DNA of 40,256 nucleotides from Bdellovibrionota bacterium (lineage in GTDB: Bacteria > Bdellovibrionota_C > UBA2361 > JBGSMV01): NCBI GenBank assembly GCA_041739995.1, contig JBGSMV010000038.1:1-40256 (forward strand). The letters are read 5' to 3'. The notes beneath the pieces were generated by a model. The model saw only the letters and a program-made list of their open reading frames with translations, ran no database searches and was not told the origin of the DNA. Below are positions 4,707 to 39,790 of the stretch, piece after piece (position 1 is the stretch's first letter; the number at the start of each line of letters is the position of its first letter). The translations under genes were made by a program, and so were the position numbers.

Positions 4707-5996
4707 TCATTCTTCTAGAGATGGCGAGGTGACGTGAGACTCTTGAACACGCTGCGGCCCAGTCAAGCCTCCGTCGAGGGGTCGATCATCGACTTCACTG
4801 CGAATTGGGCAAGAGATCCACAGCAATACGATTCCCGCAACGGCGGAGAAAAATGAGCCGACCAAAATGCCGATACGGTCGTCGACGGCGTAGTCTGGCC
4901 CGCCCCCGCCTTCAAAGGCGAGCGATCCTATGAAAAGGCTCATGGTAAAACCGATCCCGCAGAGAACCGCCATGCCGTAGACCTGTGCCCAAGTAATACC
5001 ACTGGGCAACTGGGCGATGCCGCTCTTGACGGCCAGCCAACTAGCACCAAAGACGCCGATCTGTTTTCCTACGAATAAACCCAAAGCGATTCCCAGTGGC
5101 ACGGAGGCGAGCAAAGACTCGGGGGACAACCCGACAATCGGTACACCGGCATTACCGAAGGCAAAAATGGGGAGGACTCCGAAGACGACCCATGGGTGAA
5201 GTCCATGTTCGAGCCGGTAGACCATGGCTGACTTGTCAGCGGCATGCTTGCCGGCTGGGATGAAAGCAGCGAGGGCTACTCCGGCCAGCGTGGCGTGCAC
5301 CCCTGACTTGAGAACCGCAATCCACAAGACGATGCCGAGCAGGACGAATGCAGCCATTGACTTCACGCCGAGGCGGTTCAGTACCGCAAGAGCGCCTAGC
5401 ACAACAGCGGCAATCCCGAGCGACAACGGAGAAAGCTGGCTGGTGTAGAAGACCGCAATAATGACGATTGCTGCGAGGTCGTCGATCACCGCGACTGAGG
5501 TCAGAAGCACTTTCAGCGCGACGGGAACGCGACTTCCAAGAATAGCCACGATCCCAAGGGCAAAAGCGATGTCGGTGGCGGCGGGAATGGCCCAGCCATT
5601 CATGGCAATTGGATCGCCCCAGTTGATGAAAGCGTAAATCGCCGACGGCACGACGAGACCACCTAGGGCGGCCAACAATGGAAGGGAGACCTGGCGGAGA
5701 TTCGAAAGATTGCCAAAAAGGATTTCGCGCTTAAGTTCGAGCCCGATGAGCAAGAAAAAAACCGCCATCAATCCATCGTTGACCCAGAGTAACAGTGGTT
5801 TGTGGATCTTCCATTCGCCAATGCCCACCACGGCTGGTGTCTCCAGTAGTGCGCCATACCAGCTCACTCCAGCATTCGCCACCACCAAGGCGGCTGCCGT
5901 CGCAAGCATTAGAAGAACGCCCGGTGCAGCCTGGTGCTGGATCACGCGCGATACGAATCGGAGCAACGGGTGTGGAATCGTGGGGGCAATGTTCAT
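4707..5996 (-). CDS. nhaA: Na+/H+ antiporter NhaA
   Basis: Motifs WVNDGLMAVFF, GLELKRE, GWAIPAATDIAFALG, AVIDDL, KSGVHATLAGV, LCGIGFTMSLFI. Start moved to ATG 5996, which has a GAAGGAAA SD. Confidence 0.95.
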   Translation of the reverse strand: MNIAPTIPHPLLRFVSRVIQHQAAPGVLLMLATAAALVVANAGVSWYGALLETPAVVGIGEWKIHKPLLLWVNDGLMAVFFLLIGLELKREILFGNLSNLRQVSLPLLAALGGLVVPSAIYAFINWGDPIAMNGWAIPAATDIAFALGIVAILGSRVPVALKVLLTSVAVIDDLAAIVIIAVFYTSQLSPLSLGIAAVVLGALAVLNRLGVKSMAAFVLLGIVLWIAVLKSGVHATLAGVALAAFIPAGKHAADKSAMVYRLEHGLHPWVVFGVLPIFAFGNAGVPIVGLSPESLLASVPLGIALGLFVGKQIGVFGASWLAVKSGIAQLPSGITWAQVYGMAVLCGIGFTMSLFIGSLAFEGGGGPDYAVDDRIGILVGSFFSAVAGIVLLWISCPIRSEVDDRPLDGGLTGPQRVQESHVTSPSLEE

Positions 5997-6638: not shown

Positions 6639-8618
6639 ATGCTTCGCACACTACACCGCTTTCGCCTCGTATTCTTGGTGATACTGCTTCTCTCCTCCTT
6701 CGCCCTGGCTTTCAGCGGCTTCGCCTATAGCTGGATCACTCCCAACACTGAACGGCAAGCTATAATGATTGACGACTCAGGCGTTTCCTTTCGCGATCTT
6801 GAGAATGAGCGTAAGGAACTCGATCAGATCTATCGTCAGCAATTTGGAGAAAATTACTTTCGTATCTTAGAGCAGTTGAAAGTTAATCTGCAGGAACAAG
6901 CCACAGACCGCGCCATACAGAGCCATCTCCTAACACGCGAAGCTGACCGAATTGGTTTTGCGGCAAGTCCCCAGACGGTTGCCAACCAACTTGCGTCCGA
7001 GTTCGGATCGTTTCCAAACCCTCGCGAACAGTATTCTCAATTTCTTATGTCCATCGGAATGAGCTCCCAAGAATTTGAAGAGCGCATCCGACAAGGTCTA
7101 ATCCGCTCCCAACTCGAGCAAATCGTCAGAGATTCATCCCTGCCTTCTGACCGCGAAGTAAGAGCCTCCATTGCGCTTGAGAAAACTAAATACTCCGTCG
7201 ACTACGTCATGCTTCGCCCTGAAGACCATATGGACGAGGTCTCCGCTCCCAGCGATGCCTCGATTCAAGAATACTACGAGGAAAACGCGAGCGAATTCGA
7301 GCTGCCTGAGCGAGTGACCTACGCCTTTGCAACCCTCGATCCAGCCAAGTTCCTTGATATCGTGGAAGTGTTTCCTGACGACGTAGAGCTATACTACACC
7401 GATCACGAGCAGAACTTTACTACGCCTGAGCGACGCACCGTGCGACTCATTCGTGTTAACGAGAAAGAAGCAGCCTCATCCAAAGAGACCGCAGCAAAGA
7501 AGACTGCGGCGAAGCCTTCCGAAAACGGCGGCGCCAATGAAGAATCCGCAAAGTCAAAACCATCAGACACCTTACTGAAGAAGCTTGAAGGCGGCGCGGA
7601 CTTTGCTGCCACGGCCAAATCTTCTTCTACTCATGAAAGCGCTGCCAATGGCGGCCTACTCGGAACACTTAACCAAACAGAGCTGGCGTCGAAACTCGGC
7701 GAGCCCCGCGCTCGTGAAATATTCGCTCTCTCAAAAGGCAAAGCAGCAGTACTCCAAACGGCAGAGACTGATTCGTCCGACCTGATTCTCATTGAAGAAA
7801 TTATTCCTGCCTCTCTCAAGAGCCTAGAAGAGGTACGCACAGAGATCGAAGCTGAGCTGCGTGCTCGCGAAGCGCCCGCATTCGTTGCGGCTAAAGGCGA
7901 AGAGCTTTTAGAAGAGTGGAAAAGTGCCGACAACTCACTTGCGGAGTTCATTGCTTCTGAAAGCCTGAAGGGTCGCGAACTCTCGGTGAGCACCTCAGCC
8001 TCGCTTGCTGACGAGAATGCGAGCCCCGAGGGGTATCCAGGTCTGACACTTAAGGTTCTTGAGGGCGCCGATGGCAGCCGCTCCTTGATTGACCTTGGAC
8101 AACACACTTTGCTGGTCGAAGTATTGGAGCGCAAAACTTCTGAAATTGCGTCACTCGATGCGGTGAAATCTAAGATAGTAGAGATTCTCAAGAGGCGTGA
8201 CTCTACTTCCAAAGCCCGCGAACTGGCTCAACTGATCGTTGACGAGATGAGCTCCGGCAAACACACGCTACTATCTGAAGCTGCTCAACCAAGTGGCCAA
8301 AAACTGCTTACTCTTACCGATCTCACTCGCGAGCAGTCCAACGCCCCATTTAATGATGGAGACCTAGAGCGTGCTGTTTTCTCTGAGACGAAAGCTCCTT
8401 CGAAGGTTTCCCAGGTTCACGTTAAAGACGGGGCCTATTACGTGGTGCAGGTCACTGCTATCACGCCGCCAACGACCGAAGAGGTCGAGAAAGAGCTAGT
8501 AGAACAGCGTGATGAAGAAGCGACCGCAATGTCGGGAATAATTCTGGCTTCGCTCCTAAACGACCTCAAGGCTTCATCCCGCATTGAATTTGGCCCGGGA
8601 GTGTTGGGGCAAAACTAA
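6639..8618 (+). CDS. ppiD: PpiD-like periplasmic chaperone (N-terminal TM anchor, SurA_N-like and parvulin-like domains)
   Basis: N-terminal TM helix, YYEEN...F..PE repeats, DFAATAKSSSTHESAANGGLLG parvulin-like segment, 659 aa; AGGAG SD upstream. Confidence 0.8.
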   Translation: MLRTLHRFRLVFLVILLLSSFALAFSGFAYSWITPNTERQAIMIDDSGVSFRDLENERKELDQIYRQQFGENYFRILEQLKVNLQEQATDRAIQSHLLTREADRIGFAASPQTVANQLASEFGSFPNPREQYSQFLMSIGMSSQEFEERIRQGLIRSQLEQIVRDSSLPSDREVRASIALEKTKYSVDYVMLRPEDHMDEVSAPSDASIQEYYEENASEFELPERVTYAFATLDPAKFLDIVEVFPDDVELYYTDHEQNFTTPERRTVRLIRVNEKEAASSKETAAKKTAAKPSENGGANEESAKSKPSDTLLKKLEGGADFAATAKSSSTHESAANGGLLGTLNQTELASKLGEPRAREIFALSKGKAAVLQTAETDSSDLILIEEIIPASLKSLEEVRTEIEAELRAREAPAFVAAKGEELLEEWKSADNSLAEFIASESLKGRELSVSTSASLADENASPEGYPGLTLKVLEGADGSRSLIDLGQHTLLVEVLERKTSEIASLDAVKSKIVEILKRRDSTSKARELAQLIVDEMSSGKHTLLSEAAQPSGQKLLTLTDLTREQSNAPFNDGDLERAVFSETKAPSKVSQVHVKDGAYYVVQVTAITPPTTEEVEKELVEQRDEEATAMSGIILASLLNDLKASSRIEFGPGVLGQN

Positions 8619-16078: not shown

Positions 16079-16876
16079 ATGTATTTCTTACAGTCACTGG
16101 GACCTGAAGTCGAAGCACTTAATCGCCGAGCAAAGGAACTCGTAAATTCACTGTGCGATAAGATTACGCCGATTCAATCCCAATCAAAGATCCCCACACG
16201 TCAAGATGTTTACTCGTCACCTGAACGGCAGGGCAAGCTCTATCGCCTCATAGATGGGACACTCTCCTACTCGCGAGGCGACAAAGTTCTATTCTACTTT
16301 GATCCCGGAGACCTTGTCGGCGTTGAACAATCTCTCATTGGAACAACAACAAAGATTCTCAGTGATTTTGCGGTGGTAGTTGATGTCTATGACGCGAACG
16401 ACTTCTTAGATGCCGCTCATGCCGCCCCTGAGCTGAATAGACTTTGGACAGAGTACCTGGCCTTAAATCAGGGCATGCTCTCAGCTCTTGTCGGAAATCT
16501 TTTCAAAGATGAGATCTGCGCACCACCTGACATCAACGTATTTATGGAAGGCCAGTCGATTATCGAAGAAGGTACTCGCGCAGAAAGCGTTCACCTATTG
16601 ATTGATGGGAGCGCGGATGTCTTCATTCAGGGCTGCCCCGAAGACACAGTCAGTCGCGGCGAGCTGATCGGTGTCGTCTCCGCCCTGTCAGGAATTCCAT
16701 GGAGCATCACCGTCACTGCAAAGGAACCTTGCATGGTGATGAGTCTTCCCAAGGAGAATTTTCTCCATCTGGTCGAAAGCCGTCCTTCTGCATACCTGAA
16801 GCAAATTGAAGATATGGCTCGGTTGATGATCGACTTAGGCGAGCAGTCTCTGAAGGTGCGCATAAGCAATTTCTAA
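16079..16876 (+). CDS. Cyclic-nucleotide-binding domain protein (two cNMP-like domains, no HTH)
   Basis: LYRLIDGTL...PGDLVG and IIEEGTRAESVHLLIDGSADV...GELIG...ITVTAKEPC. Confidence 0.75.
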   Translation: MYFLQSLGPEVEALNRRAKELVNSLCDKITPIQSQSKIPTRQDVYSSPERQGKLYRLIDGTLSYSRGDKVLFYFDPGDLVGVEQSLIGTTTKILSDFAVVVDVYDANDFLDAAHAAPELNRLWTEYLALNQGMLSALVGNLFKDEICAPPDINVFMEGQSIIEEGTRAESVHLLIDGSADVFIQGCPEDTVSRGELIGVVSALSGIPWSITVTAKEPCMVMSLPKENFLHLVESRPSAYLKQIEDMARLMIDLGEQSLKVRISNF

Positions 16877-23602: not shown

Positions 23603-24076
23603 TTAGAACGGCTCATTGAGCATAACGACCGATGTTTCAAGCGTCGTGAGCGGACGTCCGAAGTAGGTAACCGGCATGCGCGCGGTAAGCGCAAAGAGCT
23701 GGTTCGGCAATCCCGCTGATTCGATTTCGCAATTTCCCAGTGATCCGACCAAGCCACTAACAGTGCATACTCTGATGTTGTCCACTGACAACCCCACGCC
23801 ATACACACGAGCCCGCTCTTGTACCTGATGCTTCATGAAAAGTTCACGAGAATCGCCGCTGCCTACCAGTCCAGTAATCATGGCACGACTGGTGACCGAG
23901 AGCGCATGCTGCACCGCAACATAGCGATACACAATAAGGGTGAATTCAAGCAGCGAGAAGACTACGATCGAGAAGATTCCAAGAGTCAGCGCCGCCTCAA
24001 CCATGGTTGCCCCGCACTCATTTGTCCTTAGCGCGTTGGTATTCCTGGGGTACGTACGCTCGGCATATTTTCTCAT
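23603..24076 (-). CDS. TadE-like minor pilin
   Basis: Prepilin motif GATMVEAAL plus TM helix and the ALSVTSR (AAREGAR-like) segment. Confidence 0.82.
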   Translation of the reverse strand: MRKYAERTYPRNTNALRTNECGATMVEAALTLGIFSIVVFSLLEFTLIVYRYVAVQHALSVTSRAMITGLVGSGDSRELFMKHQVQERARVYGVGLSVDNIRVCTVSGLVGSLGNCEIESAGLPNQLFALTARMPVTYFGRPLTTLETSVVMLNEPF

Positions 24077-24092
24077 AGTCAGGTCTCCGAGT

Positions 24093-25601
24093 TCAGTCGA
24101 CGAGCCGCGGTTTTTTTATCTCGAGAAACACCTGATAAAATGCGCCGACGAGATCCCCAGGACTGGGGGCTTCTAGATACATTCCTCGCGGAGACCCCAT
24201 TCCAATGGCGGGGCGGCAGTGTGGGAAAAGATCGAAATCCTGATAGTTGTTTTCGGGGTTAGTACTATACAGGGGGAGAAACGGCGGAGCTGCAGGGGGC
24301 TCACAGCCGCCCTCAACACTTTGATCGCATAACATGTCAACGGCTGCATCGTTCGCCATGCGACGCAGCAGGTACGGACGAGTAGTGGCATCGGCGCCAC
24401 CAGCGTCTCCGTCGAAGCATCCTTGCGGCTGCCATGGTGGTTCCGGCGGAATCACCGTGCTACCGATTGGCCATCCTGTGCGGCAAAAATGCGTGCCGTC
24501 ATTCCCCAAACCAACCGTGTAAACTTTTATTCCCTCGCGCCGCGCCTGATCCGTCTGCCAGATAGTGCGATATATATCCCCAGTACCGCCCATTAACACT
24601 TGATCGTTATTTCCGGGTGTTACTGCATTCCAGGTGCCGGCGGGGCTATAGGGGTGCGGTCGCTGTGGAGAGCGTATCCGAAAGTTTACGTGCCCACAGC
24701 CAGTATCAAGCGGGGGGACCGACGCGTTTTCATGCATGCCGGGCAGTTCGCTAAGCCACACATCATCATTGTCACCAATTGGACGTCTAAAATGCTGAGG
24801 AGTTCCGTCCGTCATGACTATCATGACTTTCTCAACCCCTGAGGGAAATCCCGCGGGAGCAGCGGCAAATTGCTGGCGTCCGGTCACGAGACCACAGGCA
24901 ATGCATGTTCCACCGTTAGCAACGATCTGATTGATCGCTTGCTGGTGAGCAGCAAAGTCGGCAGGATGGTACAATTGAAGCGGGATATTTACGGTGACGC
25001 GACGGTCGCGATTGGCGTACGAAACCACCCCGAACCAGTCGCCCGAGTCGAGCAAGGACACAAACTGGGAAGCGGCCGCGCGAAGTGCGTCGATCTTGCG
25101 TACGCCATTCATTAACTCGCCCATGGAGCCCGAGCGATCAAGCACGAGAAGCACCGCTATTGGAGGAACCCCCGCGATTGAATTTGCACTTAGTTGCACG
25201 TGATAAGGAATTCCTGGAATTAATTGAAGGAAGCTGGTGGGCGATAGGGCTCTCCCCATTACCTCAAGGCGATTGTTTATGGGACGACCAAGGTTATCGC
25301 TGATAACCTCTACGTTTACATTGATATCAGCGGTAGCGAGGTCGTCTGCGAGTCCAGCGCGGACCATATTCTCGCGCGCAACTCGATCGGCGATGGATTG
25401 AATATCCAAAGATGGACGACGGTTTAGTTCCTGCATCGCTGCAATAGTGCCAGCATCAACGGCCCGTTGCAGGCGCACTTGTCTCAAAAAAGCATGCCCT
25501 CCGTCGATAGTTAATCCAATCACAAGCAGAAGCGACACTAGTGTGATTGCGAGAAATGGTAGGTAGAAACCGGATTCACCGAGTTGATAGCGGCGTTTCA
25601 T
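24093..25601 (-). CDS. TadG-like protein with vWA domain
   Basis: ESG.YL prepilin-like N-terminus, IDGG, LQRAVDAG; vWA MIDAS LVLDRSGSM, GGT, VMTDG, IKVYTVGLG. Confidence 0.85.
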   Translation of the reverse strand: MKRRYQLGESGFYLPFLAITLVSLLLVIGLTIDGGHAFLRQVRLQRAVDAGTIAAMQELNRRPSLDIQSIADRVARENMVRAGLADDLATADINVNVEVISDNLGRPINNRLEVMGRALSPTSFLQLIPGIPYHVQLSANSIAGVPPIAVLLVLDRSGSMGELMNGVRKIDALRAAASQFVSLLDSGDWFGVVSYANRDRRVTVNIPLQLYHPADFAAHQQAINQIVANGGTCIACGLVTGRQQFAAAPAGFPSGVEKVMIVMTDGTPQHFRRPIGDNDDVWLSELPGMHENASVPPLDTGCGHVNFRIRSPQRPHPYSPAGTWNAVTPGNNDQVLMGGTGDIYRTIWQTDQARREGIKVYTVGLGNDGTHFCRTGWPIGSTVIPPEPPWQPQGCFDGDAGGADATTRPYLLRRMANDAAVDMLCDQSVEGGCEPPAAPPFLPLYSTNPENNYQDFDLFPHCRPAIGMGSPRGMYLEAPSPGDLVGAFYQVFLEIKKPRLVD

Positions 25602-25602
25602 A

Positions 25603-26400
25603 CTAGAATACTACCTCCTCATGCGCGCGTAATATTCCGAAGTCCCATGGGCGCGGTTGTATAAAGTCGGTAGCCACGTCAACTTCAATTGCAAACCCTC
25701 GTGCAGTCATGAGATCGGCATTTCCACGAGCTACTTGATCTCCAGCCCAGAAGCGGCTCTTTGCCAAAGAGGCCTTCTCATCAGGGGTTCCTCCTCCCTC
25801 CCAAATATCCTCGTAGAGGCGCCCAATATCATCAGACGCATGATAAAAGGCAGTTCCGGCTTGCGTCATGATCATGCCGCCGAGCATCAAATCGCCAAGC
25901 ATCAAGGTTGGATTTTCGGGGCTCTCGCCGCAGCTGCATGAACAAGCCGTAGAGCTGAAGGAACAAGCCGTTAGTTCGCTTAGGTAGTCACCATTTCCAT
26001 CCATCCAGTCAAATCCATCGAAAGAACAAGGTGGTGCTGCGCAGGTTACGCACTGATGAGTGCTGCAGCGCCCATAGCGCAAGGTGATGCGCGGGTTTGG
26101 CCCCATGATAGTGGGTGCCGCCGACAGCATCTCTGATACCTGGTGCCGTATGCAGTCAAGTATCAAGCCCTCCGAGGTGGCCCGAGAACAGCGCCGCAGA
26201 ACAATATTCGCAAGCTCTCGAGCAACCAGAGAATTTTTCTGGTGAGTATAAATCGTAAAGCCGACCGACAGAGTTCCAAAAAGTAAGCCAGTCACAATAG
26301 GCAGCGTTAGAATAAACTCGATGAAGGCAGAGCCGCGCACTTCGCGGTCAATCGAATGCCGTCGCGAGAAAATTGAACGTAATGCGGCAGTCACCCCCAT
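25603..26400 (-). CDS. TadE-like minor pilin with Cys-rich insert
   Basis: RGSAFIEFILTLP prepilin motif, VARELAN, about 9 Cys. Confidence 0.78.
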   Translation of the reverse strand: MGVTAALRSIFSRRHSIDREVRGSAFIEFILTLPIVTGLLFGTLSVGFTIYTHQKNSLVARELANIVLRRCSRATSEGLILDCIRHQVSEMLSAAPTIMGPNPRITLRYGRCSTHQCVTCAAPPCSFDGFDWMDGNGDYLSELTACSFSSTACSCSCGESPENPTLMLGDLMLGGMIMTQAGTAFYHASDDIGRLYEDIWEGGGTPDEKASLAKSRFWAGDQVARGNADLMTARGFAIEVDVATDFIQPRPWDFGILRAHEEVVF

Positions 26401-34326: not shown

Positions 34327-37101
34327 ATGGTCACGTTTCTCCTCAAGAAAGTCTTTGGCACCTCAAACGATCGTATCCTCAAGTCTTTGAAGCCACTCGT
34401 CACAAGAGTCAACGAACTCGAGCCGCGCTTTCAAGCCATGTCGGACACTGAGCTCAAGGGCCAGACGGCACTCTTCCGCGAACGCCTAGAGAGAGGCGAG
34501 TCACTCGATGACGTTGAACCAGAGGCATTTGCTGTCGCACGCGAAGCGGGCAAGCGTGTTCTTGGAATGCGGCACTTTGATGTGCAGCTAGTCGGTGGCG
34601 CGATCTTACATGACGGACGTATCGCTGAAATGCGAACCGGAGAAGGTAAAACCTTGGTCGCCACTTTACCAGCCTACCTCAATGCATTAACCGGAAATGG
34701 CGTTCATATTGTTACAGTCAATGACTACCTCGCTCGCAGAGACTCCGAGTGGATGGGCCGTCTTTATAACTTTCTCGGGATCTCAGTCGGCGTGGTCTAT
34801 GCCGGCATGGAAGAGTCAGAGAAGAAGAGTGCGTACCTAGCGGACATTACTTACGGCCAGAATAATGAGTTCGGCTTCGACTACCTTCGCGACAACATGA
34901 AGTTCTCGCTCGAGAGCATGTATCAACGCTCGCATGCCTTTGCGATCGTTGACGAAGTGGACTCCATTCTGATTGATGAAGCGCGAACGCCGCTCATTAT
35001 CTCTGGGCCCGCGGAAGACTCCTCTGAGCTCTACATCAGAATCAATAAAATGATTCCTCAGCTCGTTCGGGAGCAGCACTACCAGGTCGATCTTAAAACA
35101 AAACAACCTACCCTGAACGATGAGGGCATTGCTCTGGTCGAGCGCCTCCTCGCGGTCGATAACCTCTATGACCCGGGCAATATTGACCTAGTCCATCACG
35201 TCAACAATGCACTTAAAGCCCACTCTATCATGCAGCGCGACGTCGACTATGTCGTTCGTGACGGGGAAATCTTAATCGTTGATGAGTTCACCGGCCGACT
35301 CATGGCAGGGCGCCGTTGGTCAAACGGTTTGCATCAGTCAGTTGAGGCAAAAGAAGGGGTTCACATTCAGCGCGAGAATCAAACTCTCGCCTCTATTACC
35401 TTTCAGAACTACTTCCGCATGTACAAGAAGCTCTCCGGAATGACCGGAACCGCTGACACGGAAGCTGCTGAATTCAAGACCATTTACGGCCTCGACGTGG
35501 TGGTCATACCCACCAACAAGAAGATGGTGCGTATCGACGACAGCGACCGAGTCTTCCGCTCTCGAGAAGAGAAATACCAAGCCGCAGTTGAGGACATTGA
35601 AGAGATTCAGGCCACGGGCCAACCCGTCTTAGTGGGCACCATCAGCATTGAGCAAAGCGAACTCGTCGCTAAACTTCTCGAAGAGCGCGGAGTTCCGCAC
35701 AACGTCCTAAATGCCAAGCAGCACGAACGCGAAGCTGAAATTGTTGCTCAAGCAGGAAGACTATCGTCCGTCACCATCTCCACAAACATGGCAGGCCGAG
35801 GCACTGACATCATGTTGGGCGGAAATCCTGAACATCTCGCTGCTGAAGAGGCCGGCACTCGCGATCGAGACGATCCAGCTTATAAAGCAGCCCTCGAGAA
35901 AGCGCGCCTCGCCTGCGCAGAGGACCGCGAAAAGGTCGTCGCCGCTGGCGGTCTCTTTATCATGGGCACAGAACGCCATGAGAGCCGTCGCATAGACAAT
36001 CAGTTGCGTGGTCGATCGGGCCGCCAAGGCGACCCTGGGCACTCGCGCTTTTATGTGTCACTCGAAGACGACCTCATGGCGAGATTCGGTGGCGATCGCA
36101 TCCGTGCGATTATGGACCGAATCGGCTGGGATAAGGGCGTTGCAATCGACGGCAACTTAATTAGTCGCTCAATCGAAACTGCTCAGAAACGCGTCGAAGC
36201 CTTCCACTTTGAAGCGCGTAAACACGTGACCGAATACGACGACGTGATGAACAAGCAGCGTCAGGTGATATATGCACTTCGTCAAAAGCTTGTGCGCGGT
36301 GAGCATATCCGAGATTCAATCCTCGAAATGGCGGACGACTCCCTTGAGCGGGTGGTCCTTGATGTCTGCGACGAACGTGTTCGCCCACATGAATGGGATG
36401 TCGAAAAAGTTGCTTCGAGCTTTAAGACACTCTTTAACAGCTCTTCGATTAGTGCCGACGCGCTCCCCAGAGATCGCCAAGGCATGTACGACATCGTCCG
36501 CTCTAAGGCTCGTGAGCTTTACGAAGAACGTGTTCACGGACTAGACCGAAAGCTCAAAGCGCTGGATGCAATCTTTCGCGAAGAGCAAGCTCACGAAGAC
36601 GGGGAGTCAGACGAGCCTTCACCAAGCAGCCCTGTCACTGACAAGGGCTTCTTTGACTTTGAACAACACACGGTCCTAGAAACCCTCGACAATCTCTGGA
36701 ACAACCACATTCGAGAGATGGAACATCTTCGAGAGGGTATCGGCTTACGTGGATATGGCCAGCGCAATCCGCTGTACGAATATCAGCGCGAAGGCTTCAT
36801 CCTCTTCCAAGCCCTGCTCCAAACGCTGCATGAAAATGTCCTTCATCGCATTTTCTTCTCAGAACCTCCCGATCCAGATGCGCTAAGGGCGCAGTTGCGA
36901 GCGGAACGAGAACGCAGAGCAGCGCTCGAGAAACAAATGCAGATGACTCACGAAAGCTCGCTTGAACCCGGTGCGAACAAAGGCGAGCCTGGAAGTGGCA
37001 TGCCCAACGGTAATGGCTCATCCTCCTCCCAAACGATTGAGGATCGGCGTGCTAAGTTAGCAGCTCAGCGAAAGGCACGGCGTCGCTCAGGTAGATTATA
37101 A
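34327..37101 (+). CDS. secA: Preprotein translocase ATPase SecA (no C-terminal zinc motif)
   Basis: Motifs AEMRTGEGKT, VTVNDYLA, DEVDSILIDEARTPLIISG, TNMAGRGTDI, HESRRIDNQLRGRSGRQGDPG. Confidence 0.98.
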   Translation: MVTFLLKKVFGTSNDRILKSLKPLVTRVNELEPRFQAMSDTELKGQTALFRERLERGESLDDVEPEAFAVAREAGKRVLGMRHFDVQLVGGAILHDGRIAEMRTGEGKTLVATLPAYLNALTGNGVHIVTVNDYLARRDSEWMGRLYNFLGISVGVVYAGMEESEKKSAYLADITYGQNNEFGFDYLRDNMKFSLESMYQRSHAFAIVDEVDSILIDEARTPLIISGPAEDSSELYIRINKMIPQLVREQHYQVDLKTKQPTLNDEGIALVERLLAVDNLYDPGNIDLVHHVNNALKAHSIMQRDVDYVVRDGEILIVDEFTGRLMAGRRWSNGLHQSVEAKEGVHIQRENQTLASITFQNYFRMYKKLSGMTGTADTEAAEFKTIYGLDVVVIPTNKKMVRIDDSDRVFRSREEKYQAAVEDIEEIQATGQPVLVGTISIEQSELVAKLLEERGVPHNVLNAKQHEREAEIVAQAGRLSSVTISTNMAGRGTDIMLGGNPEHLAAEEAGTRDRDDPAYKAALEKARLACAEDREKVVAAGGLFIMGTERHESRRIDNQLRGRSGRQGDPGHSRFYVSLEDDLMARFGGDRIRAIMDRIGWDKGVAIDGNLISRSIETAQKRVEAFHFEARKHVTEYDDVMNKQRQVIYALRQKLVRGEHIRDSILEMADDSLERVVLDVCDERVRPHEWDVEKVASSFKTLFNSSSISADALPRDRQGMYDIVRSKARELYEERVHGLDRKLKALDAIFREEQAHEDGESDEPSPSSPVTDKGFFDFEQHTVLETLDNLWNNHIREMEHLREGIGLRGYGQRNPLYEYQREGFILFQALLQTLHENVLHRIFFSEPPDPDALRAQLRAERERRAALEKQMQMTHESSLEPGANKGEPGSGMPNGNGSSSSQTIEDRRAKLAAQRKARRRSGRL

Positions 37102-38360
37102 TGGAAGAGACTCGCCCTTTTTCTCTCTACGTACATATCCCCTACTGTCTGCAGAAGTGTCCGTATTGTGACTTTAATACCTACGCCCTTTCTTCAATTC
37201 CAGAACGTGACTACGTCGCAGCGCTTTTGGCAGATCTTGATTTCCGCGCTTCTCAGGCCGAATGGCGCCAGAGACCTATGCAGTCAATCTACTTCGGAGG
37301 GGGAACGCCCTCTCTCTTCTCAGTCACCTCGCTGCGCAAGCTTATCTCTGAAGCCTGCGGACTCTTCCCTGTAACTAACAACATCGAAGTGGGACTCGAA
37401 GCCAACCCCGGAACGGTGGACTCAGAGAAGCTTGCGGCCTACGAAGAAGGTGGGGTCAACAGAATTAGTTTTGGCGCTCAGTCACTTCAATTGCAGACGT
37501 TGCGCTCCCTAGGGCGCGTGCACACACCTGAAGATGTCATTTCAGCCGTGTCCCTCGCACGAAGCGCCGGGCTTACTAACATCAACCTTGACTTGATGTA
37601 CGGTGCGCCGGGACAGACGATGGACTCCTTAAATGAAGATCTTCAGCGATACATAGAGCTTGGCGTGCCGCACATTTCGCCGTATGGACTGACCATTGAG
37701 AAAGGCACCCCTTTTTTTAACAGCTTTCGCAAAGGCCTGCTGCCACTTCCCAAAGAAGATGTCATCGCCGAGATGATGGAAGAAATTAATCGATTCCTTC
37801 CGATCCATGGCATCGCCCACTATGAGATTAGTAATTTTGCTCAGCCTGGATTTGAAGCACGTCACAATTTTGCTTATTGGAATGGGGATGATTATTTAGG
37901 GATAGGCGCCGGAGCGCACAGCTGCATAACCGCATGGGATGAAGGCAAGAAGGTCAGTGCTCGTCGTTGGTCTAACTATGCCCTGCCCGCGCGCTACATG
38001 AAGCACGCATCTTCTGAGGGAAAGGCGGAAGGCTGGACCGATGATCTCGCGGTGCCTGACCTCATGTTTGAGTTTTTCTTTTTGGGATTAAGAAAGATTG
38101 CAGGAGTTCCAATTGCTGACTTTTCTAAATTCTTTCACATTTCGGTTGAAGAGGCATATCCAGCGCTCCTAGAGATTCTGGCGACCGAAGGTATGCTGGC
38201 CTCAGAACATGGGCACCTTAAGCTTACCCCGCGAGGCTTGATGGTTGCTGATAGCGTGATTGAACACTTTGCCTCGCCTGAACACATCCCTTCACCAGAA
38301 CCTGTCGCCCTGGTCGAGCCGGGCCGCCTTGCGATACTGGGTCAACAAGCTGGAGCATAG
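37101..38360 (+). CDS. hemW: Radical SAM heme chaperone HemW
   Basis: LYVHIPYC...CPYCDF, YFGGGTPS, EANP, YEISNF, HNxxYW; TAATG overlap with secA. Confidence 0.9.
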   Translation: MEETRPFSLYVHIPYCLQKCPYCDFNTYALSSIPERDYVAALLADLDFRASQAEWRQRPMQSIYFGGGTPSLFSVTSLRKLISEACGLFPVTNNIEVGLEANPGTVDSEKLAAYEEGGVNRISFGAQSLQLQTLRSLGRVHTPEDVISAVSLARSAGLTNINLDLMYGAPGQTMDSLNEDLQRYIELGVPHISPYGLTIEKGTPFFNSFRKGLLPLPKEDVIAEMMEEINRFLPIHGIAHYEISNFAQPGFEARHNFAYWNGDDYLGIGAGAHSCITAWDEGKKVSARRWSNYALPARYMKHASSEGKAEGWTDDLAVPDLMFEFFFLGLRKIAGVPIADFSKFFHISVEEAYPALLEILATEGMLASEHGHLKLTPRGLMVADSVIEHFASPEHIPSPEPVALVEPGRLAILGQQAGA

Positions 38361-38424
38361 CTGCGCTGCCGTTGCGCGCCTGCTTCCTATACACAAAACG
38401 AAACTTTCCAAAGTAGCTCGCCAC

Positions 38425-38472
38425 AAAAAAAGCTCGGGGGAAGCAAGACTTTCATCTTATTCCCCCCGAGCT
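38425..38472 (-). terminator. Intrinsic terminator, minus strand
   Basis: AGCTCGGGGGGAATAAGAT-GAAA-GTCTTGCTTCCCCCGAGC followed by T7. Confidence 0.8.
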
Positions 38473-38623
38473 GGGTTGGTTTGGGTGTAGGTATACGGGC
38501 TTGACCGTGAAGCTTTACTAGTTCGAGTGTGACCACTATCTCCACCGCTCTAGAAACCATCTGGCATCTGCTCGGCGAATACAAAGTAGCGCTTCGAACT
38601 AGCTCAACTCTCAATTAAGCTAA
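38425..38623 (-). ncRNA. Candidate sigma54-dependent small RNA (~200 nt)
   Basis: Bounded by a sigma54 motif and an intrinsic terminator; long internal stem CUAGUUCGA/UCGAACUAG; no credible ORF inside. Confidence 0.6.
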
Positions 38624-38633
38624 TAGGGTATAA

Positions 38634-38650
38634 AGCAATCCGTGTGCCAA
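38634..38650 (-). promoter_or_regulatory. Sigma54 (-24/-12) promoter
   Basis: Minus strand TTGGCACACGGATTGCT matches YTGGCAC-N5-TTGCW. Confidence 0.82.
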
Positions 38651-38923
38651 GCTAATCGACCCCCTCACTTGGTGATGTTACTAAAATGTCATCAAATAGC
38701 ATTAATCTACTGGGGAGATTTGGTGGCCTCGAAGAACCGAAACCTACCGATCGAAACCCCCATATATCTTCCAATGCGATATCTTACTAATAATATTAAT
38801 ATTGTTCTCGAGTCCTAAATACGAGCACTGCTCAGGTCCATGTCAGTCCATTTCTAGTTGGCATTGAGAGCGGCACTCTCTCATGCTCTACTCAATAACT
38901 GGCGATATTTGACACTAATAGAC

Positions 38924-39790
38924 ATGGCGAGCCAGGAGCAACATATCTTTCGTATCTGCAGGCTTTTGATTAAGCCTGCGATTCGCTTTGCGCTGCGCTC
39001 CAGCATACTCCTGCAAGATTTGATTCAAATCGCCAAAGAGGTCTATGTCGAGCTCGCCGAAGAGGAGCTACAAAAAGCTACCGGAAAGATCAACGTGAGC
39101 CGACTTAGCGTCATGACCGGGGTACACCGACAAGACGTCACCAAGTTTTTTAGAGACCGAGAGTCTCTACTCATCGAGTCTCCTCAGAGCCTATTGGGCA
39201 AGGTCATCGCGACCTGGTCACATGCACCAAAGTTCACCAATCAATCTGGTCGACCTAGAGTGCTCACCTACGAAGGTGCCACAAGTGAGTTCTCTAAGCT
39301 GGTGTCGAGCATCTCGACCACGGTAAACCCAGGTACCGTTATCTTTGAGCTTGAACGCAACGGGGCAATCGTAAAATCTGCAAGGGGCGTAAAGCTAGTA
39401 CGTGGCACAGTCGCTTCGGGGATGTATCCAGAACGCGCCTATTCACTGCTTGCCAGAGATATCGACACACTCACCACGGTGGTGCAAGAAAATCTGGCGG
39501 CTCAGGATGACGAGAGTGAGGCAGGACACGCCCACTATCGCACTTCCTTTGACAATTTATTTATTGCTGATTTGCCCAAGGTTCGAGATTGGATCGTTCA
39601 GCGCTCGCGCGCTTTTCACAAGGACGTACGCGACTATCTCGCACAACACGACGCCGATTACATTCAGAATCGAATTGGGGCAAAAGAGGCAGGTGGCAAA
39701 GTAATTGTCACTTTATTCTCGCATTCCAGCCCAGGCCTTCAAGTCTTGGAGCAGCACTCCGATAAGACTTCTTACGGGCTTCGGCGTTGA
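38924..39790 (+). CDS. DUF6502-like protein
   Basis: LLIKPAIRFAL, K.VYVELA, NVSRLSVMTGVHRQDV, VIATW, PRVL...G..SEFSKLV pattern (recalled). ATG 38924 preferred over TTG 38858. Confidence 0.7.
   Translation: MASQEQHIFRICRLLIKPAIRFALRSSILLQDLIQIAKEVYVELAEEELQKATGKINVSRLSVMTGVHRQDVTKFFRDRESLLIESPQSLLGKVIATWSHAPKFTNQSGRPRVLTYEGATSEFSKLVSSISTTVNPGTVIFELERNGAIVKSARGVKLVRGTVASGMYPERAYSLLARDIDTLTTVVQENLAAQDDESEAGHAHYRTSFDNLFIADLPKVRDWIVQRSRAFHKDVRDYLAQHDADYIQNRIGAKEAGGKVIVTLFSHSSPGLQVLEQHSDKTSYGLRR

Follow-up and report, generated by a model that had tools for sequence, protein, structure and literature searches.

A candidate stand-alone sigma-54-dependent small RNA gene between hemW and a DUF6502 gene in a Bdellovibrionota bacterium

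Sigma-54-dependent small RNAs (sRNAs) such as GlmY/GlmZ, Qrr, CrcZ, and Pxr couple a signal-gated activator to fast post-transcriptional control. A limited literature search found no description of such an RNA in Bdellovibrionota-like bacteria. The element discussed here is a candidate of this class located in a stretch of 40,256 nucleotides (nt), referred to below as the window, which comprises positions 1 to 40,256 of contig JBGSMV010000038.1 from the Bdellovibrionota bacterium assembly GCA_041739995.1 (3.8 Mb, 81 contigs, 91% complete). This bacterium represents a deep Bdellovibrionota-like group, and its best SecA identities (58-62%) are to metagenome-assembled genomes labelled Myxococcales, Deltaproteobacteria, Kofleriaceae, and Bdellovibrionales. 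The predicted RNA of ~199 nt would be transcribed from the minus strand in the interval between hemW and a gene of the DUF6502 family.

GlmY and GlmZ are similar in size to the window RNA and fold into three stem-loops, while the Qrr1-5 RNAs of Vibrio are sigma-54-dependent, base-pairing, Hfq-dependent siblings with one conserved seed. In the Enterobacteriaceae, GlmY and GlmZ are described as sRNAs produced from activator-controlled sigma-54 promoters (PMC3045617), with GlmY serving as a decoy for RapZ (PMC7073468). CJnc230 from Campylobacter is reported as a sigma-54 (RpoN)-dependent base-pairing sRNA (PMC11187230). In the account given in PMC5568312, Pxr from Myxococcus and Cystobacter is an intergenic sRNA of 108 nt that apparently has its own sigma-54 promoter, is predicted to form multiple (two or three) short stem-loops leading to a terminator, is restricted to one lineage, and lies directly downstream of the activator gene nla19.

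The window unit resembles Pxr in being intergenic, in having its own sigma-54 promoter followed by stem-loops and a terminator, and in its restriction to a lineage. However, its RNA is longer (~199 nt), is dominated by one long hairpin, and has no activator gene on its contig. With the Qrr RNAs and CJnc230 it shares the combination of a sigma-54 promoter, a predicted accessible linker, and a terminator, and as in the case of Qrr, several sigma-54-driven sRNA genes (candidates here) occur per genome. In contrast to Qrr, Hfq was not found, and the four units of this genome lack one common seed. GlmY and GlmZ are unrelated to the window RNA in both sequence and fold, and no Rfam match connects them. 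Judged by its sequence, the window unit belongs to none of these sigma-54 sRNA families.

Rfam 15 yields no match at gathering score across the whole window, and the only match at E ≤ 10 within 38300-38900 is bxd_3 (E 4.7), at a position outside the RNA. The RNA itself matched no family at E ≤ 10, Pxr included, for which a model exists in Rfam. 6S RNA was considered and rejected, as the ends of the window RNA are not paired with each other in the predicted fold, a closing stem and central bubble are missing, and RF00013 gave no match at E ≤ 1 genome-wide. An earlier note, which had been made from the sequence alone, had stated that an Rfam match would remove the novelty of this RNA; no such match was obtained.

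The locus is best explained, with a little more than even confidence, as a stand-alone sigma-54-dependent non-coding RNA gene of ~199 nt whose expression would be gated by an activator and whose linker would pair with messenger RNA (mRNA) without Hfq. Base-pairing through the linker is probably the mode of action. The gene is species-specific and probably a recent addition to a small sigma-54-driven sRNA set of the lineage.

The promoter, TTGGCACACGGATTGCT, occupies 38650-38634 on the minus strand and consists of a -24 element TGGCAC, a 5-nt spacer (N5), and a -12 element TTGCT. Its core (38649-38634) has no mismatch to TGGCAC-N5-TTGCW, with the GG of the -24 element, the GC of the -12 element, and the exact spacing all in place, and is the only perfect match in the window. 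The earlier note had placed a consensus promoter here, and all elements that it listed are present at its coordinates. At ≤1 mismatch, the window contains 5 matches, compared with 1.77 expected from shuffles. The bases flanking 38634-38650 (T before, TTT after) are like those at the other intergenic sigma-54 sites of the genome. Genome-wide there are 10 perfect sites, 7 of which fall outside the genes predicted by a crude codon-based caller, in the remaining 16% of the sequence. Control patterns with the wrong spacing (N3, 4, 6, 7, and 8) gave 19 sites in sum, only 2 of them intergenic, and the reversed pattern occurs once in the genome. Because the control patterns are rare or rarely intergenic, a perfect intergenic site in this genome, as identified by its sequence, is very likely a real promoter.

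Sigma-54 promoter geometry places the transcription start ~12 nt after the GC of the -12 element. With this GC at 38636-38635, transcription on the minus strand would start near 38623 (38622..38624). The corresponding machinery is encoded in the genome, in which a profile search found rpoN (PF04552, one match, E 1.9e-61) and enhancer-binding activators (PF00158, Sigma54_activat). Of the 14 activator matches listed, 10 are strong (E ≤ 1e-38). A scan of 37900-39200 revealed no sigma-70-like promoter.

The predicted RNA is highly structured. The minimum free energy (MFE) fold of 38624-38420 on the minus strand (205 nt) has a dG of -78.6 kcal/mol and a z-score of -5.36, and none of 200 shuffles folded as well. 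The plus strand reaches only -63.4 (z -2.37), and the structure signal is thus specific to the minus strand. At the 5′ end, an irregular hairpin of 122 nt (38499..38620, minus strand) with several internal loops and bulges reaches a dG of -47.5 and a z-score of -4.2 on its own, and its G-U pairs make it minus-strand specific. The fold reproduces the long imperfect stem of the earlier note, including the inner pairs named there. The hairpin is followed by a G-poor, C/A-rich linker of 26 nt (RNA nt 127-152; 38473..38498, minus strand) that is predicted to be single-stranded, with unpaired probabilities of mostly 0.5-0.99, consistent with the unstructured stretch originally proposed.

The GAAA-capped terminator with seven uridines that had also been described is found at 38431..38472 (minus strand), where a 12-bp outer stem, a bulge on each side, and a 6-bp inner stem carry the GAAA loop (arms 38472-38455 and 38448-38431). 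It is followed by a T7 run (38431-38425). As this run provides a U-tract for minus-strand RNA alone, the terminator has the orientation expected of a transcript from that strand; on the hemW strand, the U-tract after the same hairpin is poor. The terminator lies 218 nt downstream of the promoter on the same strand.

Intrinsic terminators are scarce in this genome, with 42 sites in 3.8 Mb (hairpin dG ≤ -18 and a run of at least six T). Of these, 26 are intergenic; 16 of the 26 lie within 150 nt behind the end of a same-strand gene, and the remaining 10 are orphans. The window site is the strongest orphan (dG -27.7) in this survey of hairpins and T-runs; a separate, simple terminator scan did not list the window hairpin. 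The 10 orphans include the window unit, two further units discussed below (C42 and C52), and a site that closes a 5S rRNA gene (C7:57177). Another (C1:11855) lies behind a Gly-rich gene missed by the gene caller, and 5 remain. A sigma-54 motif with ≤1 mismatch is present within 400 nt upstream of 2 of the 10 orphans, the window unit and C42, compared with a rough expectation of ~0.04 based on the 78 motifs of this kind counted over 7.6 Mb of strand.

The window unit thus has its own promoter, an intrinsic terminator, an intergenic position, and no coding potential. Its sole sizeable open reading frame (ORF), of 75 amino acids (aa), has a TTG start at 38614, ~9 nt from the inferred transcription start and without a ribosome-binding site, and reads through the terminator. 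The codon score of this ORF is 1.35, compared with 32.5 for the neighboring DUF6502 gene. It has no homologue among proteins of 41-132 residues and no Pfam match, in agreement with the self-contained non-coding unit of the earlier note.

Three further units in the genome have the same design of a sigma-54 promoter, a 5′ hairpin, a G-poor unpaired stretch, and a terminator, and all three are conserved in relatives together with their promoters. The most widespread is the C52-type RNA of ~100 nt, located at C52 ~19866-19740 on the minus strand (L252 ~141-267), which was detected with BLASTN in 18 of the 91 genomes of the order and in 7 of its 21 families (relatives L254-L266). In the window genome, its promoter motif (C52:19866, minus strand) has 2 mismatches. 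A TGGCAY-N5-TNGCW-like promoter precedes the CUGACUCCU core by 55-82 nt at all 12 fetched loci; 10 of the 12 fit the search pattern, while those of L260 and L265 were recognized by eye as TGGCAC-N5-TTGT/ATGC. The core itself is an invariant unpaired CUGACUCCU(C/G/U)GUUAAG followed by the terminator, and the 5′ hairpin is variable. The window RNA shares with this family its genome and the design given above. However, it is twice as long, cannot be aligned with it, and occurs in 1 of the 91 genomes.

The C42-type RNA (C42 66016-66320, plus strand; L215 ~317-622) is 281 nt long with a z-score of -3.15, has a strong terminator, and carries a sigma-54 motif with ≤1 mismatch (C42:66016, plus strand). 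The orthologue in a genome of the same genus (G001:C176 ~16374-16625, minus strand; L222/L249) has kept the promoter. The hairpin loop UCCUCCGAUACC(AC)n is identical over 30 nt in the two genomes, and changes in the stem are compensated. In public genome contigs, the loop has a single exact 20-mer match (L253), in a record labelled Bdellovibrionota. The C74-type RNA (C74 ~5139-5340, plus strand; L251 ~240-440) of ~170-200 nt has the promoter CGGCAC-N5-TTGCA and was located via its orthologue in the same relative (G001:C173 ~7511-7710, plus strand; L247 ~1500-1700). The two genomes do not differ in the promoter, in a 5′ segment of 15 nt, or in an unpaired linker of 21 nt, and the terminator stem is compensated. 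None of the C52, C42, and C74 units has a match in Rfam 15 at E ≤ 1; matches to microRNA models in L247 were rejected, as they fall on an unrelated palindrome.

The four units share no alignable sequence, and their common design is therefore not evidence of homology. A loose AUACC-containing C-rich motif, noticed post hoc, is all that they have in common at the sequence level. Nevertheless, three conserved units built on the same blueprint make it more likely a priori that the window unit functions as a gene of that kind. A broader hypothesis, offered tentatively and well short of even confidence, is that the window RNA is the youngest of at least four sigma-54 sRNAs sharing a blueprint of a fast-evolving 5′ hairpin and a fixed, exposed, G-poor seed, in an uncultured Bdellovibrionota-like lineage apparently without Hfq or ProQ. 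Enhancer-binding-protein signalling would then routinely proceed via sRNAs, and the window locus would represent a recent sRNA birth in a rearranged intergenic region.

Contigs from 4 DNA sequencing runs confirm the layout hemW, promoter, DUF6502 gene; two of them (X1 and X2) run from the 3′ end of hemW through the promoter, and another (X4) runs from 38580, in the 5′ part of the RNA, through the promoter into the DUF6502 gene. At 38460, one run carries a variant that changes the bulged A of the terminator to G, opposite a bulged C, and contigs from two of the runs have a T-run shorter by one base. The RNA is single-copy in its own genome. In the assembly as a whole, the 16-mer TGGGAGCGAAGTTGCT recurs near contig ends, at least 11 times at a distance of ~20-45 nt (e.g., C1:46, C7:46, C9:46, C28:45, C61:19, C6:63662, and C10:70398), and a repeated element probably breaks the assembly at those ends.

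Several results, beginning with conservation, weigh against a functional, activator-gated RNA gene. BLASTN against 40 relatives gave chance-level matches only (best E 0.0027), and the three inspected matches to the linker all lie in coding or repeat DNA. A single-sequence covariance model built from sequence and fold found no match in 4 genomes of the family (E ≤ 1) and none when searched at E ≤ 0.1 against the order, that is, against 90 genomes besides its own. The RNA thus occurs in a single one of these 91 genomes, and without a homologue there is no covariation to support its fold. Orthologues of hemW occur in all 4 family genomes (52-67% amino-acid identity); directly behind hemW, three of these (G001, G003, and G004) have a same-strand gene of ~450 aa that has no tblastn match in the window genome. 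No sigma-54 motif follows hemW in 3 of the 4 relatives, and the fourth (G004) has one imperfect, N4-spaced match; none is perfect. The expectation that the unit would be conserved at the 3′ end of hemW thus failed, which by the criterion of the earlier note speaks against the unit, though the whole locus is rearranged in these relatives. Protein-anchored scans did not confirm any related locus in public genome contigs with the DUF6502 protein, and with HemW they found no close relative of the locus in metagenome contigs (best identity 45%). The sequencing runs that contain the stretch are all DNA (5 of 5, from hot-spring, biofilm, and sediment metagenomes), with no RNA run among them. Variation within the RNA, one substitution and one change in T-run length, is too scant to show constraint.

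The regulatory and target sides contribute further points of this kind. None of the Sigma54_activat matches lies on the contig of the RNA. The promoter is preceded by an AT-rich divergent control region (38651..38857, GC content 0.40-0.45) common to the RNA and the DUF6502 gene; this contains an AT-only palindrome (38789-38806) and weak repeats only, with no convincing activator-binding site. A comparison with 26 other sigma-54 sites found no convincing common upstream 9-mer motif. The earlier note had proposed the C-rich linker as a possible seed that pairs with G-rich ribosome-binding regions. Its duplex energies are no better than chance: the best linker duplex over 2924 start regions reaches -34.7 kcal/mol, compared with -30.1 to -37.5 for ten shuffled seeds. 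The linker has no CUCC/CCUC anti-Shine-Dalgarno core, and the 5′ regions of DUF6502 paralogues are not preferred partners. The complement motif GGTATNGGAG has 28 matches, with no enrichment at gene starts. A conserved seed with identifiable complementary targets was not found. Of the proposal of an unannotated trans-acting sRNA, the promoter, the terminator, and the non-coding unit are supported by the sequence, and the seed and its targets are not. What this weakens is the case for a known target mechanism; the case for the existence of the RNA is unaffected. As for RNA-binding proteins, Hfq and ProQ were not found in the 91%-complete genome; CsrA is encoded.

The genes on either side were correctly named in the earlier note. 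The hemW-like gene, which matches the radical-SAM and HemN_C profiles (37101..38360, plus strand), is convergent with the RNA, with its stop codon 64 nt past the T-run. The DUF6502 gene (PF20112; 38858..39790, plus strand) is divergent from the RNA, with translation probably beginning at the ATG at 38924. DUF6502 is multicopy: this genome has 10 copies (the window copy and L043-L051), G001 has 15 matches, and three further genomes of the family have 3-6, with mutual identities of 28-40%. A literature search found no paper naming the family, and its protein in the window has no sequence match in the PDB. A divergent perfect sigma-54 promoter faces 2 of the 10 copies. A general pairing of DUF6502 with such promoters was rejected, given these 2 of 10 paralogues and none of 8 loci examined in relatives.

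The second of these promoters (C23 43482-43981, plus strand; L045/L216) follows a palindrome with 13-bp arms and is divergent from a DUF6502 paralogue. It precedes a 5′ leader hairpin with a T-run and then a gene for a secreted-looking, Cys-rich protein of 131 aa. Homology between the window and C23 units was rejected, as no similarity extends past the promoter core and the best tblastn match of the C23 protein spans 3 residues (E 36). A further combination of a sigma-54 motif and a terminator, C67:22060, was discarded as a candidate because it sits within a small secreted-protein gene.

Elsewhere in the window, a sigma-54 motif with one mismatch, TGGCATACATGTTGCA (26965-26950, minus strand), is located ahead of TadE-like and TadG/VWA-like genes (23603-26400, minus strand), and this sequence suggests that these pseudopilin genes may be sigma-54-driven. 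The RNA and the tad genes had been proposed as possible members of one regulon. The motif is indicative of a shared sigma factor only; no activator gene lies on this contig, and no upstream motif is shared with the 26 other sites.

Other explanations of the locus can be weighed against this background. The unit may be a relic or neutral, either a sigma-54 promoter and leader stranded after the rearrangement behind hemW or a chance unit beside the hairpin at the hemW end, perhaps transcribed without a selected function. This is unlikely, yet it accounts for the uniqueness of the unit to the species, for the different post-hemW segment in three family relatives, and for targets that do not exceed chance. 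The C23 locus provides a possible source, since its promoter drives a leader with a hairpin and T-run ahead of a small secreted Cys-rich protein and the window could hold such a leader without its gene. However, the similarity to C23 ends at the promoter core and no remnant of the C23 protein was found. The unit has an intact hairpin, linker, and terminator of unusual stability, the perfect T7 is on the minus strand rather than the hemW strand, and three conserved sRNA units of this genome follow the same design. A less probable alternative still, for which the chances are rather small, is a sigma-54-dependent RNA that binds or titrates a protein through its long hairpin or C/A-rich stretch, in the manner of GlmY or CrcZ. 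A hairpin of 122 nt is far larger than a typical seed-bearing sRNA needs, no target stands out, CsrA is encoded in the genome, and precedents are described for GlmY (PMC3045617, PMC7073468) and CrcZ (PMC5113210). In contrast, the RNA contains only 2 GGA triplets and is therefore not a CsrA sponge, a CrcZ-like Hfq trap is ruled out because Hfq was not found, repeated binding motifs are absent from the RNA, and there is no Rfam match to the GlmY, GlmZ, CrcZ, or 6S models.

Two explanations are more remote. The convergence of the unit on hemW, with 64 nt between the T-run and the stop codon, would fit a cis-acting transcript that modulates the hemW 3′ end by read-through antisense RNA or polymerase collision, and owing to the weak plus-strand U-tract, hemW transcripts may extend into the RNA gene. 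Such a role is very unlikely: little read-through is expected from so strong a terminator (dG -27.7, T7), and the terminated RNA ends short of the hemW coding region. Least probable of all, and barely credible, is an mRNA for a small protein encoded by the 75-aa TTG frame (or its 57-aa ATG version) or by a 22-aa hydrophobic ORF that starts in the terminator loop. Open frames do exist, and a G-rich stretch lies ahead of the ATG at 38455. However, both frames pass the terminator and terminated transcripts would thus have no stop codon, while the position of the TTG start, its missing ribosome-binding site, the low codon score, and the absence of homologues and Pfam matches noted above all disfavor translation.

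For the stand-alone sRNA gene, which is the preferred explanation, the following mechanism can be envisaged. Sigma-54 RNA polymerase would start at the -24/-12 promoter and produce an RNA from 38623 to 38425 on the minus strand. Because the promoter is of the sigma-54 -24/-12 type, initiation would require one of the ~10 strong enhancer-binding activators in its active state. The very strong intrinsic terminator would end transcription. On the basis of the predicted architecture, the long 5′ hairpin may serve as a stabilizing or protein-contact domain. Finally, in what is the weakest step of this scheme, the exposed 26-nt linker would base-pair, independently of Hfq, with G/U-rich parts of target mRNAs.

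Taken alone, the window unit is an unconserved candidate in a metagenome-assembled genome, and the order-wide C52-type family is the better lead, including for comparative target prediction. If expressed, the window unit would add a species-specific regulator to the class of sigma-54-dependent sRNAs. If this holds, then together with the three conserved units it would mean that several sRNAs of this sparsely sampled lineage are under sigma-54 control in the absence of any known RNA chaperone.

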